A DNA stretch of 63,600 bases, filler included, from Reclinomonas americana ATCC 50394 (GCA_048213135.1; 3 parts of 3 records of this genome joined end to end with filler, not necessarily neighbours in it); one strand, 5' to 3'. Shown: positions 15,720 to 25,069, counted from the whole stretch's first letter. The notes: generated by a model not told the origin, from the letters alone. Numbers and translations are program-made.

Positions 15720-17286
15720 TCACCTGGGGTGCTTGCAGAATATCGCTGTCCATGTAGCCTCTGTTGCACCGGCTGCGAGTAGTTGGTCCAGCACTTCCTG
15801 TAAATTTTCGGACGCCCTCCGGCACCACTCACGGCGGTGGACGCAAACAGAAGACTCGCGATCCTGGTCATTGTTAACCGCACTCTCGTCCATATACTCG
15901 AACACCGAACGGTCGACGATATCCGCATTGATCAAGTTCGACTTGACGAACTGAAATGCTTTCGGAAGCAGAACACACAGGTCTCTATCGTCAGCCGCCA
16001 CCATCTCCGGATCACAAGACCACTGCAATGTGTACACAAACATAAGTCCTGCAATAAATCCTCAAGATCTCCAAACAGACGCATTCACGTACAACGCACC
16101 ACTTTCAGCAAGCCTTCAACATGGTTGCTCTTCAGCAGTGCTCGCACTGATGAGGGAAATTGCACTTGAGGTCCTGGGCCATGGTATGCGACAGTTTCGA
16201 CACCTTGGTTGTTCAGGCTCCAAAGCTTGACAAGGCGCACCACCTGTACCCACCATGGCCAGCAGTACGGCTCCGAATTTTTGTCTGTCGGTACATGTGC
16301 TGCAAGTCCGGTTGCTGGTCGTCGGATGATATCGGGGATGCCAACGAACCGGTACGGGCGGTTGTCGACTTTCGAAAACCGATGCACCGCGCACATTGGT
16401 CTCGGTGCACGTGTGTTGATAAACAACCGTAACGTCGACATAACGCACTGGAAGTGGTATCTGCGCCGGCGCAACTGCCACATGACGTCGACCTGTCCAT
16501 GCATAAGGCCAAGACGTACGTATACGGAACCCATGGCCACAGCATGCGGAGTCTTGATGAGGTACTAGTGCACAGAATACGAGGCACCACCCGCACAAAA
16601 TTGACTCACCTCCTTGGCCCCGGGCATTAGCAATGCTGAAACGTAGGCGAGTGCTGCAACTCTGCGACACGATTTCAACATCGTCCACACCAAATCCGCG
16701 AAGATGCTGGTCTTGTACAATGGCATCCTTGTGGTCGACGAGGACGCTTCGCAAGTCACGACAGCGGCAGGCGTCGCGAATAACAACGGCAAAATCCAAA
16801 TCCGACCCGGGCAACACCTGCTCTGGGTTGAGATCGAGAGGCTGCTGCGCCGGTGCCTGCAGAGCTCCGAGCTGGTGAATGGTGTCGTGATGGTGAACGT
16901 CAGTGCCCAGCTCGGATGAACCAGTGGCCAACACTTGGACGATATCAACGGCTGCACCACCAGCGGTACGACGACCAGCGAAAATGTTTTGCAACACCGC
17001 CTTGAAGTGATCTTTAAACTGTGCCACCCGATCAGATTCTTCTGGTGTGAGTGAAATGTGCTCGAGCACATTGCGCAGTACTCGCGATTCACACTTGAGC
17101 TCGGCACAACAGTTGGCGCCGGTGGGTTCTGCGCACATGCCACACGTCGAGGATTGCAATGAAAACTCAGTGTCACACGCAGCGTCTGTCTGTGATCACT
17201 TCACGAAACTGAGCAGAGACCGTGCAACAGCGGAGATTGGGGCAGCAAGCGCCACAAACACCGCCGCAACGGCAAAGAGGACCATG
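15720..17286 (-). CDS. OAS/cGAS/CD-NTase (SMODS)-like nucleotidyltransferase, multi-exon
   Basis: Pol-beta signature LATGSSELGTD(intron?)VLPGSDLDFAVVI (GS at ~16914-16922, DLD at 16794-16802); third-Asp VDV at 16484-16492; VVRLVKLW at 16220-16243; LKSNHVEGLL; C-terminal ATWTAIF. Some exon junctions are inferred. Confidence 0.65.
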
Positions 17287-18618
17287 TCGCGCTCACGCAC
17301 ACAGCGAGTCGGGTTGGTTGTCCAACTCCGTTCGCTTGATTCTGGTCCGCTGTCGCAAATAAGTTGTCAACCCACCGACATGCACCTTCGTTCGCTGCAC
17401 ATCATTATTTCCGACGGCTTGCGTTCGGCTGAGTTGTGAGTTGCCCCTGCTGAGTCGGCTTCGAGGAACAGGTCGTATTTCTCTTACCTGCACCTCGGTG
17501 TTGGTGCTCCATTTATCAAGCGCGATTTTACAACATATTTCCACTAGTGAACGACCAGTCACCAATAAGACGGGGCATCTTTCATTTGCTTGTGTCCTCC
17601 TCTTGCGAAGAGGACATACACTGGCTAATAGATGACCATGGTGGGTCGTAGCACCAGTCATTTGCCTCTCCCGTCCCAGAATACTTATCAATTACTCACG
17701 CACAAGAATCGTTGGCTTCCGCCGATAGATTAAGGACGTGGAGATAGACGAGGTGCGCACGGGCACCGACAGATCCGGGAACAGGAGGAAACAAGGGTTA
17801 CTACACACGCATCCGTCGCCGTAGTAGACCGCAGTTGNNNNNNNNNNNNNNNNNNNNNNNNNNNNNNNNNNNNNNNNNNNNNNNNNNNNNNNNNNNNNNN
17901 NNNNNNNNNNNNNNNNNNNNNNNNNNNNNNNNNNNNNNNNNNNNNNNNNNNNNNNNNNNNNNNNNNNNNNNNNNNNNNNNNNNNNNNNNNNNNNNNNNNN
18001 NNNNNNNNNNNNNNNNNNNNNNNNNNNNNNNNNNNNNNNNNNNNNNNNNNNNNNNNNNNNNNNNNNNNNNNNNNNNNNNNNNNNNNNNNNNNNNNNNNNN
18101 NNNNNNNNNNNNNNNNNNNNNNNNNNNNNNNNNNNNNNNNNNNNNNNNNNNNNNNNNNNNNNNNNNNNNNNNNNNNNNNNNNNNNNNNNNNNNNNNNNNN
18201 NNNNNNNNNNNNNNNNNNNNNNNNNNNNNNNNNNNNNNNNNNNNNNNNNNNNNNNNNNNNNNNNNNNNNNNNNNNNNNNNNNNNNNNNNNNNNNNNNNNN
18301 NNNNNNNNNNNNNNNNNNNNNNNNNNNNNNNNNNNNNNNNNNNNNNNNNNNNNNNNNNNNNNNNNNNNNNNNNNNNNNNNNNNNNNNNNNNNNNNNNNNN
18401 NNNNNNNNNNNNNNNNNNNNNNNNNNNNNNNNNNNNNNNNNNNNNNNNNNNNNNNNNNNNNNNNNNNNNNNNNNNNNNNNNNNNNNNNNNNNNNNNNNNN
18501 NNNNNNNNNNNNNNNNNNNNNNNNNNNNNNNNNNNNNNNNNNNNNNNNNNNNNNNNNNNNNNNNNNNNNNNNNNNNNNNNNNNNNNNNNNNNNNNNNNNN
18601 NNNNNNNNNNNNNNATCC

Positions 18619-19686
18619 ATGTCGTGGAGACGAGCTTCTGCGGTCGCATTTGCGGTTGGGGGTGGGCTGAACATGTTTGCGAATTCACACGACGTCGATC
18701 GCATCGGCGCCGGCTCCGGTGCACTTCCACTTGCCGATCAACGAGCCCGGAAGTCGTCGTGGGGATTGTTGTCGGCCTCTTCGGGTGCATTGTTTGCACT
18801 TGAACGTGGTTGGTTTGCTGTGAGGTCAACAATTCTGCTGCGTTGCTCCTCACGCTTGGGCATTGGTGTCGCAGCACATGAAGACACCTTGAATGGCATG
18901 TTCGGGAATGGACAGCATCGTCGATTTGATACGCCAGCGAGTGTGCCTCAAGCGACACCTGATCATATGCATGCAGCTCACCAAACGAAGCAGCATTTCC
19001 AAGGTACTGGCAACGGTCTGTGAATGTGCGCGCGTGCTTCGCCAAATTATGCGTGCACTCTCCTCAATCGCAATTGCACTCGCAGCTCCTCCTCAGTCGC
19101 ACATCGGGACCATGTCCAGCGCGGAAATGCTGGGTCGCGCACACTGGCATATTCAAGCATCTTTCTCATCTCACGGAAAGCAACGGCTCCATCACTATGA
19201 TGAAAGTACGTTCACGATAATCTGTAGATCGATGCGTGCAAACGATCAGTCATTAATTGATCAATATTCTGCTACATGCACAGGTCAAAGCTACGCCGCA
19301 AGTGCTGGAAGATTGGCTCAATCCCAAAACGACAAGATGACCGAAGGTCAGTAACCGCAGCGCGTTTGCACGTCTGCATGCTTTCGAATACTGACATTGA
19401 TCTGTCACATATGTACATGTCTGCCCCGATTCGATGATCTTCCGCACGTGTGCCTCTGGCAGCCAGTGCCCTGAAGCTCGATTTGCAGGTCGATGTGATG
19501 AAGCAGGTTCCAGCTGCCGCCCCCAAGGTCGCCCAAAAAGCAATTGATTTGGAGACACTGCACAAACAACTGGGAATCATTGACCCGTTGCCTCAAACTG
19601 TTTTGAATTCGGAATATGTGCGTCGTTACGCACACACCACTGGTGACGATTTGTCGCCGCCGTTTGGCGCGGCTGCGGGGGCCTAG
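18619..19686. other. Unresolved probable spliced coding region between the NTase and SAVED genes
   Basis: Non-repetitive sequence with several ORF fragments and candidate splice sites (e.g. aaa|gtacgt ~19206, cacag|gtc ~19283, ttgcag|GTCGATGTG ~19488 leading to VDVMKQVPAAAPKVAQKAIDLETLHKQLGIIDPLP). No consistent model or family was recognised; its left edge abuts a ~780-nt gap. Confidence 0.3.
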
Positions 19687-19947
19687 GACTGCATACGCAG
19701 CGAGAGCTCGAGAAGAGTGACCGATTCGTCTACTGATGTCGATCGCGCGCGATTGTGAGGTTGAGAGAGCATTTGAAACAATACTTTAAGTACACACCCT
19801 CTGGCCTTGTGATCGTGAAGAAATGGCCATCGTGTGCTCGCATAGGTGCTGCGGGAAGTAACGAGTGCCGTTAAAAGAGGGTGGCTCGCCTAAAATTCAT
19901 GATCAAAGGCCAGGACATCCGATTGACCATTCGCAGCTCAGTGAGCC

Positions 19948-22034
19948 ATGATCATGGTTCGCTTTCTGCGGCTTGCAGTCAGCGCGTCGCCGATTATGAA
20001 GAGCACTCTCGCCTTTGCTGGGCGAGAATCGACGCGTACGACAGCCACACTGACTCCTTCGTGGTTGTCTGCTACCAGCTTGCGCACATGCTCGATGTTA
20101 GCACCACCTCTGTTGCTCCGCATGCCGTCGATGCGTTTGTATTCCACGCAAGCGCCGATTGTCAACACTGCTGGTGGTGGTACGTTTCTATGTGTGTGTC
20201 TGTGTGCTCGTTGTGTGTTTGGATGTGCGAGTGAGAGAGAGAGTGCGAGACTGCGCATGCATTGTTCGAACTTGTCGTACTGTAATTGTCAGATGTGCTC
20301 TCCTTCTCTCACACACTCGCACGCTCGTACTCGTACTCAATAGTAGACGTATACATGTGCAGTATCCAGTGGTAGTCGCGGTTCTGATCATGATGGCAAT
20401 CGTGGTGGTGGCAATCAACATGATGAAAGTGAGAATCACACCCCCAAGCTCAAGTGGCGGGCAGTGATTGGATGGAAAAGTGCAGCGATGGCGGTGGGCG
20501 CTGCTTACTTACTGTACGACTACTTCCTCGGTGAGCGCTTGAACAAGGTGTGTGCTGATCATGCATGTTCGAATTCAGTGATCATCACTGCGGACGATCA
20601 GAGTAATGAGTGTGGCCATGGTGGTGCAATACGCAGACCACGGTGGTCGACTGGTACTGCTTCGATGCATATGGTGGCCCGGCGCAGGCATTTGGTGCAA
20701 GCCGGGCGGAGCCGACGAAAGACGAGAGAAACGTTCTGGACGTTGTCGCTGAAGAGCGCACTGACATCGGCCCGCTGTACACCATTTTCAGCTTCATTGT
20801 CGACTCCATGATCGAGCACCTTCCGTTTGACGTCAGCAAACTGATGCCGACGGATGTTGAGGCGTATTTTGTGCGCCTGTGTCAGAAGCGTGTTCGGAAA
20901 AATATGATCACCAAGCACAGTACCATGATCACCGCCAGTGTCGACGACACTGAGAACAAGGACGGTGGATATCACAAGTGGGGTGCGCCATGGTCTGTCG
21001 CTCAGTGGCGACGTGTCGAGCAACAGGTGAGTGTGCGCATGCAAAATATTGCAATTGCATGTTTTATTTGCTTCTGTATATGTGCTTGCATTTGCATTGT
21101 CGGCGTGCAAACTTCACTACGTACTGACTACCATCGGACGGCTTGCAGGTATCTGTGCTTTCAGCGGCAGCAGCCAATACGCACAGCGAGCATGGAAGTC
21201 ATGTGATGATGGTCAGTTCATTGGCGCCGACCGCCATCCATTTGCTCCTCGGCTATCAGCTTGCTCATCATCGCGTTGCCGACCGGGTGATCTTTGCCAA
21301 TCCTGTGCCTCGGACGGCTGAGCCAGGTGCGCTATGATCATTGTTGGTGGCGGCAATTGTTGTCACTGATCATGACGATTTCTTGACTGCAGTGAAACCG
21401 GTGGTGTGGTTTCGTCGACGTGCGGTTCACGATGCTGCAGCTGACCCGTACAAGCCGAAATCACACCTCAGCTGTCAGCTCCGGCCGGGTGCTACGTCGT
21501 TATCAGTCCCTGTGCCACACAAGAATATCATCTTGTTCGTGCACAGCGATCCGTCCCACTCCCTCGCGGACGATCGCGTTAAACAAATCCATGATATCCT
21601 GCGAGAGGTACATTCGATCTTTATGTTTTGTGCACCTTTTCCTGTGATGTTCTTAAGCTATCATTTACTCTGTGCTTTAATTCTCACCGCTTCGACGTCG
21701 ACGTCTGCAGAAATTCGGTATTACGGACGCGAAGGTGTACGATTTTGAGATCGGCACTGGTGCGTCAGGAAAGCCGCTGGACGACACGCATGCTGCTGAA
21801 GCCCTGAGTCGGCTCTCCGACTTGGTGCGCAACGGCAAGTCTCCTTTGGCAAGTGCCGACACCGTGGCGATTGTGTCGTCGGCTCCGCAGTTCATCACCA
21901 GCACGCTTGGTCTGGTGTTGGGGGCCGCGTACAGTCTGCCGTCCCCGCGCCGCGTGTTGGCGTTCAATAGTGATGCCATGGGAGTAAGTTTGGCTTTTGT
22001 TTTGAAGGATCCGGATGCAGACAGCACTCTGTAG
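19948..22034 (+). CDS. Membrane-anchored SAVED-domain protein with a putative mitochondrial presequence
   Basis: Six exons (19948-20179, 20363-20547, 20637-21026, 21149-21326, 21393-21607, 21711-22034), all GT-AG and in frame. Two SAVED-type motifs MMVSSLAPTAIHLLLGYQL and VAIVSSAPQFITSTLGLVL; linker Trp (VVWF); NIILFVHS strand; terminal SLAFVL; hydrophobic segment AVIGWKSAAMAVGAAYLLYDYFLG. Confidence 0.6.
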
Positions 22035-22405: not shown

Positions 22406-25069
22406 ATGCTTTCGACCGCGCTCCTCACCCTCCTCGGCCTCGTGCTCCTTCTCATCGTCTGGAAGGTGCGCTGTGTGTGTGTGACTGACCACCATGCATC
22501 CCACCCACCCACCCACACTCATCACACACACACACACACACAGTTGATTCCAGTGTTTCTCACAAGTTGGCGTCTTCGCCACTTGCCCTCCCCTCCCGGT
22601 CACTGGCTCAAGGGCCACTCGTCCCTCCTCCGACTCCGTTGCGCACCCTCCATCCTCCACACACACGCACACACTCTCTCACGCACACACATGCAGAACG
22701 CCATGAGAACTTCCGCGATCTGCAACGCAATGGCTTCCCCGACCTCGCTCTCCTCCGCATTGTCACCGTCCACGCGGTCGCTCTCTTCTCCCCACAAGCT
22801 GTGCATGAGGTTCTCAAGGACTACACCAAGTACCACAAGAGCAAGGCATTCTGGTGCGTTTTGTGCAATCAATTGTCATTCATGCATGCACTGACTGATC
22901 ACTCTTTCCCGCAACCAAAGGGTTCTGCTGCGCCAGTTTGCCCCCAAGGCCCTCCTGCTCAACGAGGACAGCGAGTGGCTGCACACACGGTGCGTGCATG
23001 CAGTCGGATCTCGGAGATGAGCGCTGTCTGATGATCATGACACGTGTGTTGTCATACAGGAAACTGTTGAACCCCGCCTTCTCCGATGTCAAGGTCTCCC
23101 TCCCCGCCCCTCTGTCGACCAGTTCCTTGTCGACTCGCCTCTCATTCACCTCTCTCCCATGCAGCTGGGCGACCTGTTCTCGCACATCAAGGCCTGCGTC
23201 GACGAGCTCGTTGGCCAAATCCGTCGCCGACCGTCGGAGATCATTGTCGCAGAAGACAGTGCGTCCCCGCCACTCTCTGCCCCTGTGTCTTGTGTCTGCT
23301 TCGTGCCCATGATATTCCTGTGTCGACAGAGATGGCCGACTTTACGTACGAGGTCATCATGCGCTCCACGTTCTCCGAAGAGTCGCCCATTGGTGAGTTT
23401 TCTGTTCAACAATTTGTGACAAGTCGCTCGTTCTCACTCCTCCCGTCCACAGGCGGCAACCCCATCAAGGGCGCTCTCGACAGTGTGTTGCGTTTGCCGT
23501 TGAGCGTCATCCATGTGCTCGTTTGCCGATGGCTCATTACTTCTGTGCAGGATCAAGGAGTTGAGGCTTCGTTGTTGTGCCTTGATGTTGCGGTCCAGTT
23601 GGTTGATGCTCATCTCACCGCACAGGTTCGAGTACCGCTTCCAGTCCCTGATTCCGTTCTGGCGGCTCATTGAGACTGAGCGCGACAGGTGCGAACGCGC
23701 CATTCACGCTCTTCTCATCTCTCTTTTTGTCGCTCTCTCTCCTCTTGTCTGTTCCTCGCATTCTCTGCATCTACTCTTCTCATCGCTCTCTCTTTCTTTC
23801 TGTCTTTCTCTCTCTTCACTCCTTCCCTTTCCCTCTCCGTCTCTCTCTCCCTTCTCCCTCTTCACTCCTCCCCTTCCCTCTCCATCTCACTCTTCTCCCT
23901 TCCCTCTCAGGGAATACAAGCGACAAACCAAGATGGCCGCCGAGTACTTTGACGAGCGCATCACTCGCCGCCTGAAGGAGGACGCCAACCACCGCGCCGG
24001 GCGCACCACCGATCTGCTGGATTTCATTCTGGCCACGCACGACGAACTGCAGGAGGGAGTGTCACTGGACTGGGTATGTCGTCACTACGCTGCGATGCCT
24101 GCATGCCTGCCGCACACGTCTCACTCCACAGCACAGATCCGCGACCAAGTGTTCATCTTTGTGCTGGCCGGCCAGGATACCACGGCGGCGGCGCTGTCGT
24201 GGGCCCTCTACAATCTCGCCTCTCGGCCCGCCATCATGGCCAAGGTGCGTTCCGTGTTGGTGATGGATGCTTGCCCGTCACGCCTCCTTACACTTTCGGT
24301 TGACATGCTGCAGGTGCGAGCGGAGGTGGACGCCGTGTATGGCTCGCGGGATGCGCTCGCCTACGAGGATCTCAGCAAGATGAAGTACCTCGACGCGTTC
24401 ATTCACGAGAGTTGAGTCTGCCGTCCTTCATACCTTGCAAGAGACGCTGACGCACGCATGCACAACAGACATGCGACGCTACCCACCGGCGCACGCTTTC
24501 AATCGCCAAACCACGGTCGACTCGGAGCTGTGTGGCTACAAGATTCCGGCCAACACCACACTCCTGATCGCCGCCTACACCATTCTCAATCTCGAAGAGT
24601 ACTGGGGACCCGATGTGCTTGAATTCCGCCCCGAGTTGCGCACGCAGCGCAGCGCACAATACTATTGCCGTGGCCTTGGACTGAAAAAATCTTGTATGCA
24701 GACGGTGGCTGGACGAGTCGGGCTCGATGAAGTACCTGCCGCTGATGTACAGTCTCATTTTCTCGCATGGCCCGCGTGTGTGCATTGGTTCGTCGTCCAC
24801 CTGCAACGGATTGTGAACAGCCGCAGCTCATGTGTGTGATTCGGTGTGCAGGTGCGCGCTTCTCCCTGGCCGAGCAGCGGCTCTTCCTCGCCACGTACGT
24901 CGCTCTGTCGTCGCCATTGTCGCCACACTCGCCTGAAAAACGCTCCCGCAGACTCGTGCACGAATTCGACATTATCGACGAGAACAAGACACCGCCCGTG
25001 GCCACTCCAAAATTCACACTCCGCAGCCAAGACGGCATCCGCGTCTCGTTCCGCCCGCGTCGCCGTTGA
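22406..25069 (+). CDS. Cytochrome P450 (CYP3/CYP4 clan-like), multi-exon
   Basis: N-terminal anchor plus LPSPPGHWLKG; RKLLNPAF; I-helix FVLAGQDTT; K-helix HE|NMR; PE|RW; heme motif FSHGPRVCIG. Confidence 0.92.

Follow-up and report, generated by a model that had tools for sequence, protein, structure and literature searches.

Two intron-bearing genes of Reclinomonas americana as a possible second-messenger module akin to bacterial type I CBASS

In bacterial effectors the SAVED domain is made of two fused CARF domains (PMC8204762). In Cap14, an effector of type I CBASS (antiphage signalling by means of cyclic oligonucleotides) with CdnB as its partner, a C-terminal SAVED domain is fused to an N-terminal Saf-2TM region that is amphipathic rather than uniformly hydrophobic, and the protein is a chloride channel opened by 2',3'-cGAMP (PMC10402079). 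Here, two genes of Reclinomonas americana ATCC 50394 (GCA_048213135.1) were compared with this and related systems. They lie between positions 15720 and 22034 of a stretch of 63,600 nucleotides, filler included, in which parts of three records of the genome are joined end to end (hereafter the window). The gene on the minus strand encodes a nucleotidyltransferase-like (NTase-like) protein, and the divergent gene on the plus strand encodes a protein with a SAVED-like C-terminal part. The two lineage-specific eukaryotic genes may act together in second-messenger signalling by nucleotides, in the manner of bacterial type I CBASS, a reading to which we give a probability of about one in three. Such a synthase-sensor module is likelier than any single rival explanation and less likely than all rivals together.

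Known nucleotide-signal immunity in eukaryotes uses STING or RNase L as receptors. The eukaryotic members of the CD-NTase enzymes have been divided into cGLR, OAS, and eSMODS groups, and the OAS superfamily is abundant across eukaryotes and was probably present in the last eukaryotic common ancestor (LECA) (Culbertson & Levin 2023, PMC10732462); the main text of that study does not mention SAVED. In the literature searched, all SAVED/CARF receptors described came from bacteria, archaea, or viruses of these, and no report of a eukaryotic SAVED protein was found there, although supplements and the key comparative-genomics surveys fell outside this search and absence is therefore not established. 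SMODS and SAVED were reportedly defined in a 2015 paper.

In the proposed scheme, the NTase, with its GS-x11-DLD motif, third acidic strand, and helical C-terminus of the poly(A) polymerase (PAP)/OAS1 type, would make an oligonucleotide or cyclic nucleotide signal. The plus-strand protein would sense this signal via a very divergent SAVED-like domain composed of two CARF-like halves, and would act through its N-terminal part, which combines a leader resembling a presequence with one or two helices of weak hydrophobicity. The sequence itself shows the gene structures, the motifs, the NTase-clan likeness, and a colinear likeness to SAVED; the fold, the synthesis and sensing of a ligand, the organelle target, and the functional link between the genes are what we infer. 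If correct, such a synthase-sensor pair would be a first among eukaryotes. Eukaryotic signalling by cyclic nucleotides or oligonucleotides would gain a third class of receptor, a type of membrane effector known from bacteria would be connected with an organelle, and product, binding, and localisation would all be open to direct test. Should the likeness be due to chance, the locus consists of two orphan protist genes.

As in the Cap14 system, an NTase is accompanied by a protein with a weakly or amphipathically hydrophobic N-terminus and a SAVED-like C-terminal end; one bacterial Cap14-type member (L082), with matches to PF18303 and PF18145, carries both A-P-x7-G hallmarks, as does the plus-strand protein. 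Because this layout equals that of the Saf-2TM-SAVED channel Cap14, the output of the plus-strand protein may be at an organelle membrane. Unlike those of the Cap14 system, the genes described here are eukaryotic, with four to five spliceosomal introns each, and are divergent and not adjacent, with no operon. The plus-strand protein further differs from Cap14 in having no Pfam match to Saf_2TM or SAVED, in its presequence-like leader, and in a mainly helical stretch of about 95 aa that separates the SAVED-like part from the hydrophobic segment; similarity in sequence between the two proteins is on the borderline of chance. It is a doubtful proposal, and a rather unlikely one, that this protein is a SAVED receptor with a mitochondrial-type leader which would serve as a Cap14-like, nucleotide-gated organelle effector of an OAS/CD-NTase-like synthase. 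On that proposal, eukaryotes would have their first second-messenger pathway for immunity or cell death that relies on SAVED, one of an age at which each gene could have acquired four to five introns and all ordinary similarity to the bacterial members could have vanished.

Two CARF-like halves at the C-terminus are also the arrangement of the Cap4, Cap5, and TIR-SAVED effectors of CBASS and type III CRISPR (clustered regularly interspaced short palindromic repeats) systems. Bacterial SAVED proteins of the HNH type (L088-L095), the DUF4297 type (L083, L093, L096, and L097), and the TIR type (L098 and L102) aligned colinearly with the plus-strand protein, these effector types being read from the N-terminal sequences. 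The plus-strand protein differs from Cap4, Cap5, and TIR-SAVED in lacking any nuclease, TIR, or protease domain and is far removed from the sequence space that they occupy.

The plus-strand gene and its SAVED likeness

The features of the plus-strand gene and its product were as follows.
19948..22034, plus strand: SAVED-like gene, six exons, 507 aa; five GT..CAG introns, every phase fitting
19948..20179, plus strand: exon 1, presequence-like N-terminus; 77 aa with 8 K+R, 1 D+E, and 40 S/T/A/L
20455..20529, plus strand: weakly hydrophobic segment, candidate membrane helix, aa 109-133; Kyte-Doolittle 1.27 over 19 aa
20766-20822, plus strand: second weakly hydrophobic segment, aa 183-201; Kyte-Doolittle ~1.13, counted by hand
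20919..22031, plus strand: SAVED-like C-terminal domain, aa 234-507, with three introns inside; colinear glocal alignment to three SAVED profiles
21200..21253, plus strand: first hallmark, HVMMVSSLAPTAIHLLLG, a strand, then A-P, x7, G; aa 287-304; motif match
21861..21911, plus strand: second hallmark, TVAIVSSAPQFITSTLG, aa 451-467, then strands RRVLAFN and VSLAFVLK
21948-21968, plus strand: strand RRVLAFN after the second hallmark, from sequence
21984-22007, plus strand: strand VSLAFVLK after the second hallmark, from sequence

The six exons (19948-20179, 20363-20547, 20637-21026, 21149-21326, 21393-21607, and 21711-22034) are separated by introns of 183, 89, 122, 66, and 103 nt and join into a single uninterrupted frame of 507 aa. 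The intron phases all fit, which is strong evidence that the gene model is correct.

The evidence for a SAVED-like domain begins with its motifs. Duplicated AP-x5-LG motifs had been pointed out in a first-pass annotation made from the sequence alone; they are real and more exact than described there, since both halves contain A-P-x7-G, a SAVED hallmark, at aa 295-304 in the first half and aa 458-467 in the second. The bacterial SAVED domains fetched (n=16) carry the same hallmark at the same two positions, with the proline replaced in some first halves. In each half of these domains [AG]-P-x7-G and a helix come after a strand; the second copy is close to the C-terminal end, with two more strands behind it. 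The plus-strand protein has this motif and this order, with spacing as in the bacterial domains, an agreement in motif and order only. Colinear alignment with bacterial SAVED domains extends over roughly its last 290 aa. In the glocal traceback the elements were aligned in the order first strand, W-helix, first hallmark, DRVIFAN, NIILFVHS, and AKVYDFEI, and then, in the second half, a helix ending in RNG, the second hallmark, and the strands RRVLAFN and VSLAFVLK. Single-sequence AlphaFold2 (AF2) prediction gave exon 6 the secondary structure H-E-H-E-E, as at the end of a SAVED domain, at a predicted local distance difference test (pLDDT) score of 51.

Bacterial SAVED proteins for the profiles were harvested from four bacterial genome samples using PF18145 at E <= 0.001, with the locus of one unpublished genome, G1036, excluded. 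A profile of 124 mostly redundant SAVED proteins was uninformative. A glocal Viterbi scorer was written because local scoring discards colinearity; it uses the whole profile, is local in the sequence, and takes HMMER parameters, and is our own code rather than a calibrated tool. The decoys were 447 real open reading frames (ORFs), each 250-700 aa long, and came from four bacterial genomes, of which 40 stretches (20 kb each) were used. The plus-strand protein scored as follows.
16-sequence SAVED profile: -36.5 bits; decoys as good, 1/447; shuffles as good, 1/300
26-sequence independent Myxococcota profile: -28.7 bits; decoys as good, 3/447; shuffles as good, 0/300
42-sequence combined SAVED profile: -34.0 bits; decoys as good, 1/447; shuffles as good, 0/300

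In SAVED-like colinearity the protein was thus placed in the top 0.2-0.7% of the 447 decoys (p roughly 0.002-0.007). The likeness is specific because each of the two proteins was ordinary against the profile of the other: the plus-strand protein was 61st against a CD-NTase profile, with 60 of the 447 decoys higher, and the NTase was exceeded by 213-361 of the 447 decoys on the SAVED profiles. The top decoys varied between profiles, and the plus-strand protein was near the top with independent SAVED profiles. As judged by glocal scoring, the plus-strand protein is one with a specific, reproducible, colinear SAVED likeness that falls below every conventional significance threshold.

Several results weigh against a SAVED assignment and against a synthase-sensor module. 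In a leave-one-out comparison with our own profiles, the 16 true SAVED domains scored 30.9-225.9 bits and the plus-strand protein 1.1-5.6 bits. Pfam SAVED (PF18145; gathering score 26.2 bits) had no match at E<=1 on any exon-wise translation, and searches of PADLOC, NCBIfam, and PDB sequences with the exon-wise ORFs returned nothing relevant for either protein. When the plus-strand exons or the spliced domain were aligned with SAVED alignments using hhalign, the probability was below 1%. Local hmmsearch gave the plus-strand protein 2.4 bits (3rd of 501, shuffles included), with uneven ranks between profiles (2nd of 448 at 6.3 bits for one profile, but 9th of 448 for a different one). The decoys that matched or beat it in glocal scoring were unrelated alpha/beta proteins (an SRP54-type GTPase, an SDR protein, YmdB, and a GAF kinase); as such proteins equal its score, that score is on a par with what the top chance hits reach in a set of about 450 proteins. 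Its likeness to SAVED is modest, as is the NTase likeness of the other protein, and a glocal p of ~0.005 is also weak because the locus had been picked from a very large scan by the same motifs. The language-model neighbours of exon 6 were unnamed bacterial proteins and CbiA/ParA fragments, with no SAVED-labelled cluster, and when 1.84 billion representatives were searched by phmmer with exon 6, the one hit was a 2040-aa repeat protein, matched over 25 residues and judged spurious. An internal repeat between the two halves of the plus-strand protein was not found. The SAVED domain of the first-pass annotation therefore stands in part, in its hallmark and in a colinearity that beats ~99.5% of controls, but not as a match to the Pfam SAVED profile.

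Structure alignment of the exon 6 AF2 model (VIA-align), at the pLDDT given above, produced generic or meaningless matches, with no SAVED or CARF chain among the matches listed, which for a model of this quality is uninformative. In a word-index search with exon 3 among longer proteins, none of 79 candidates passed. The one locus (L173) that a scan of metagenome contigs with exon 3 gave was rejected as a bacterial 2-oxoacid dehydrogenase E2 with an 11-residue run shared by chance.

For the N-terminal part, composition is what suggests a targeting function: the N-terminus looks like an organelle presequence. A transmembrane segment had been proposed, and a hydrophobic stretch is present, but it is only weakly hydrophobic (1.27 over 19 aa). 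Pfam Saf_2TM (PF18303) had no match on the ORFs covering exons 1-3, and one or two weak segments were found where a Saf_2TM protein would have the profile together with two to three membrane helices.

The harvest also yielded observations on bacterial SAVED proteins. SAVED-bearing genomes were about four to five times commoner in the Myxococcota sample (30/391) than in the other samples (6/401, 7/401, and 8/401). Several Myxococcota genomes had 2-5 SAVED domains (L143-L172), and some of the proteins concerned were longer than 800 aa. Short proteins of ~200 aa (L086 and L087) carry one membrane helix and, of SAVED, the second half only (Pfam ~115-185), and that of L086 adjoins a Card1-type CARF nuclease.

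The minus-strand gene and its nucleotidyltransferase fold

The features of the minus-strand gene were as follows.
15720..17138, minus strand: NTase-like gene, five exons, 344 aa (371 aa with the 81-nt segment kept); canonical model
16899..17138, minus strand: exon 1a, with N-terminal helix, first strand, and GSSELGT (16922-16902); from sequence, AF2, and profile alignment
16818..16898, minus strand: in-frame 81-nt GT..AG segment (GTTCAC...GAGCAG), candidate intron or 27-aa loop in the catalytic hairpin
16610..16817, minus strand: exon 1b, encoding GSDLDF (16808-16791), two strands, and helices, with G|GTGAGT as its donor
16103..16609, minus strand: ambiguous middle, two open frames, each with a VDV
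16243-16220, minus strand: VVRLVKLW, motif match
16132-16115, minus strand: KSNHVE, motif match
15720..16022, minus strand: last exon, with acceptor TTGCAG, helical C-terminal part, and stop at 15722-15720; from sequence
15752-15738, minus strand: WTAIF, motif match

In the preferred model the exons are 17138-16899, 16817-16610, 16474-16388, 16299-16103, and 16022-15720. The four introns are GT..AG, their acceptors all end in GCAG as in the plus-strand gene, and the coding sequence of 1035 nt is in frame. The GS and DLD motifs, VVRLVKLW, KSNHVE, and the W-x-x-IF end were all located on the minus strand where the first-pass annotation had placed them. That annotation had also derived GS-x11-DLD by removal of one intron, and removal of the 81-nt segment at 16898-16818 gives exactly this spacing (x38 otherwise). 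The donor of this segment is weak, and its 27 residues fall inside the stretch of residues 73-112 that AF2 predicted at a pLDDT under 50; the donor G|GTGAGT at 16609 is strong. The claim of a VDV motif held as far as presence goes, but two copies occur in two open frames (VDVMW at 16492-16478 and VDVTVV at 16439-16422), so a single VDV is ambiguous. That both genes carry ordinary spliceosomal introns, five GT..CAG introns in the plus-strand gene and four GT..AG introns here, agreed with what had been claimed. Codon statistics were too noisy to fix the frame in the middle region. The NTase gene can be intact, because the canonical five-exon model gives an open frame of 344 aa.

The minus-strand gene probably encodes an NTase of the pol-beta fold and of the PAP/OAS1 two-domain type, as suggested by the following comparisons. 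With the 81 nt spliced out, the protein has the pol-beta pattern G[GS]-x9-13-D-x-[DE], and a VDV in each open frame is a candidate for the third acidic residue on a later strand. The single-sequence AF2 model (pLDDT 49) contained a helix, a strand, a 40-residue low-confidence stretch, a strand, helices, and two strands, which is the order of the NTase core; in exon 1a the helix comprised residues 32-53 and the strand residues 65-72. Language-model neighbours of exon 1 were the OAS3, Mab-21, MTPAP-like, NTP_transf_2/SMODS, PAP, and DZF clusters (0.85-0.90), and the ten best family-bearing matches all belonged to one family or clan.

CD-NTase and SAVED genes occur side by side in bacteria, where 19 of 35 flanking ORFs given to Pfam, preselected from 75 by a GS..DxD pattern, were CD-NTases; a profile was built from these 19 proteins adjoining SAVED genes. 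The exon 1a stretch aligned to the N-terminus of this profile. The NTase scored 8.7 bits locally, across the N-terminal helix and GS..DxD hairpin in its N-terminal 75 aa, and the score dropped to 3.5 bits with the 81-nt segment kept. A score of 8.7 bits exceeded 500 of 500 shuffles and 446 of 447 decoys, the sole higher decoy being a true SMODS protein. Whole-length glocal scoring against the same profile placed the NTase 11th of 448. The decoy stretch concerned (L112:2-775, minus strand) held a genuine SMODS CD-NTase (154.7 bits) and served as an unplanned positive control for the profile.

Other results on this gene tell against a CBASS-type synthase. None of the curated models (Pfam, PADLOC, NCBIfam, and PDB sequences) recognised any NTase exon, hundreds of GT..AG combinations keep the frame open under alternative splicing, and the assignment fits OAS/CD-NTase and terminal uridylyltransferase (TUTase)/PAP enzymes alike, with the middle exons ambiguous. 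SMODS (PF18144 and PF21654) had no exon-wise Pfam match. OAS1_C (PF10421) and Mab-21/cGAS (PF03281) had no match at E<=1 in three NTase ORF translations taken exon by exon, and PF01909, PF03828, and PF22600 had none at E<=1 exon by exon, a result with which a divergent TUTase/PAP member is compatible. In a word-index search with the 359-aa NTase ORF, 0 of 1744 candidates passed. Foldseek with the NTase AF2 model returned generic matches, with no OAS or CD-NTase chain among the matches listed, and at pLDDT 49 this is uninformative. Of the CD-NTase/OAS-like synthase originally proposed, a pol-beta NTase is what stands, but SMODS and OAS1_C gave no match and CD-NTase/OAS is not separated from TUTase/PAP.

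A likeness of another kind was observed for the stretch VVRLVKLWSLNNQGVETVAYHG (16220-16283, minus strand), which matched WD40 repeat proteins in PDB at E = 4e-9. These matches are one 20-residue likeness multiplied by near-identical repeats. VVRLVKLW is not specific for OAS-type enzymes, because on its own it collects WD40 repeat proteins.

With the eukaryotic OAS superfamily and eSMODS the NTase shares GS...D.D, a long N-terminal helix, and, probably, the pol-beta fold, and the widespread OAS-like group of protists may include it. In the text of PMC10732462, eSMODS are defined by a top Pfam SMODS hit together with PF01909; the NTase has neither. Non-canonical PAPs and TUTases (Cid1, MTPAP, and TENT) are similar in superfamily, two-domain plan, catalytic loop, and 'K.W' helix, and clusters of these enzymes were among the language-model neighbours. 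Unlike them, the NTase has no NTP_transf_2 or PAP_assoc match on any exon.

Linkage, origin, and rival explanations

The start codons of the two genes, at 17138 (minus strand) and 19948 (plus strand), are 2.8 kb apart and the genes are divergent. Two features lie between them.
17838..18614: scaffold gap, 777 N long
18898..19686, plus strand: intervening gene, four exons, 170 aa of low complexity, 513 nt in frame; GT..CAG introns throughout

The presence of this gap and this gene between the pair counts against a linked module. Physical linkage, as claimed in the first-pass annotation, holds in that, on the scaffold as joined, the genes are close and divergent, but they are not adjacent, and the gap and the intervening gene weaken it.

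Horizontal acquisition had also been claimed, and this part was not borne out. Neither protein has a detectable bacterial relative, and the plus-strand protein lies ~25 bits or more below the most divergent SAVED domain. Searches of plasmids (tblastn) with exon 6 and with NTase exon 1 gave only E values of 5 or worse, and a scan of genome contigs with exon 6 gave 527 pattern matches, of which 0 were confirmed. Recent bacterial transfer is, on these comparisons, without support. If the proteins are homologous to CBASS parts, either the acquisition would be old or the genes would be very fast-evolving; each of them carries 4-5 introns.

The rival explanation that survives best takes the two genes to be unrelated neighbours, and we consider it a serious contender even though, taken singly, it is unlikely. 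The NTase would be an OAS-like or other stand-alone signalling NTase with unlinked partners. The plus-strand gene would encode an unrelated alpha/beta protein, probably organelle-targeted, membrane-anchored, and Rossmann-like, whose SAVED likeness is the best chance match of a motif-driven scan. Gene order in eukaryotes rarely reflects function, and here another gene and a gap stand between the two. All standard SAVED tests were negative, unrelated alpha/beta decoys reached an equal glocal score, and enzymes of the OAS superfamily are abundant in eukaryotes and were probably present in LECA (PMC10732462). Against chance, the plus-strand protein was consistently near the top with independent profiles while the top decoys changed, both hallmarks are rightly placed with exact P-x7-G spacing, and an NTase-fold gene within 3 kb would be an added coincidence.

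It is improbable that the NTase is a non-canonical PAP or a TUTase with a housekeeping role and that the plus-strand gene is unconnected with it. The MTPAP-like, PAP_NTPase, and NTP_transf_7 clusters among the language-model neighbours point in this direction, VVRLVKLW is not diagnostic, given its match to WD40 proteins, and the S-D-L-D after G-S-x3-G and the 'VK.W' helix ~35 aa past the third acidic strand in the preferred model are features that we take to be typical of TUTases too. On the other side, no exon had a Pfam match to NTP_transf_2, PAP_assoc, or MTPAP-like_central. The GS-to-D spacing of 11 (81 nt removed) presumably equals that of OAS1. The N-terminal region scored above 446 of 447 controls on the CD-NTase profile, though a TUTase might do the same.

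Least probable is an artefact or decayed locus, in which the NTase gene would be a pseudogene with frame changes or contigs would be misjoined, so that there would be no functional pair: the frame preferred by codon statistics flips repeatedly between 16600 and 16100, the NTase model is not unique among hundreds of open splice combinations, and 17 N runs mark a draft scaffold, but a fully canonical five-exon model with GCAG acceptors has an intact 344-aa frame, the gap has a specific estimated size (777), as is usual for mate-pair scaffolding, and each flank on its own carries eukaryotic genes.

Genomic setting

The setting is eukaryotic on both flanks of the two genes. The neighbouring long ORFs are pieces of RIB43A (flagellar), cytochrome b561-N, P450, actin-family, metallophosphoesterase, and malic enzyme genes by Pfam. 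The statement that the pair sits among eukaryotic genes, and so is not simple contamination, was confirmed by these matches and by the introns in both genes. No paralogues of the two genes were found within the window.

G+C is ~0.36-0.62 per 2 kb across the window, which contains 17 N runs with lengths of 20 to 777. Because of these runs the window is considered a heavily gapped draft scaffold, and several gene models near gaps will be incomplete. The exons of the intervening gene are 18898-19003, 19086-19205, 19284-19346, and 19463-19686 (plus strand), and its 5' end could reach into the 777-N gap just before it. Its 170-aa product is rich in histidine and glutamine, and Pfam gave no match for the gene at 18898-19686. 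Directly downstream of the SAVED-like gene lies the P450 gene (22400-24415, plus strand), the introns of which hold CA/CCCA microsatellites at about 22480-22560 and 22640-22700.

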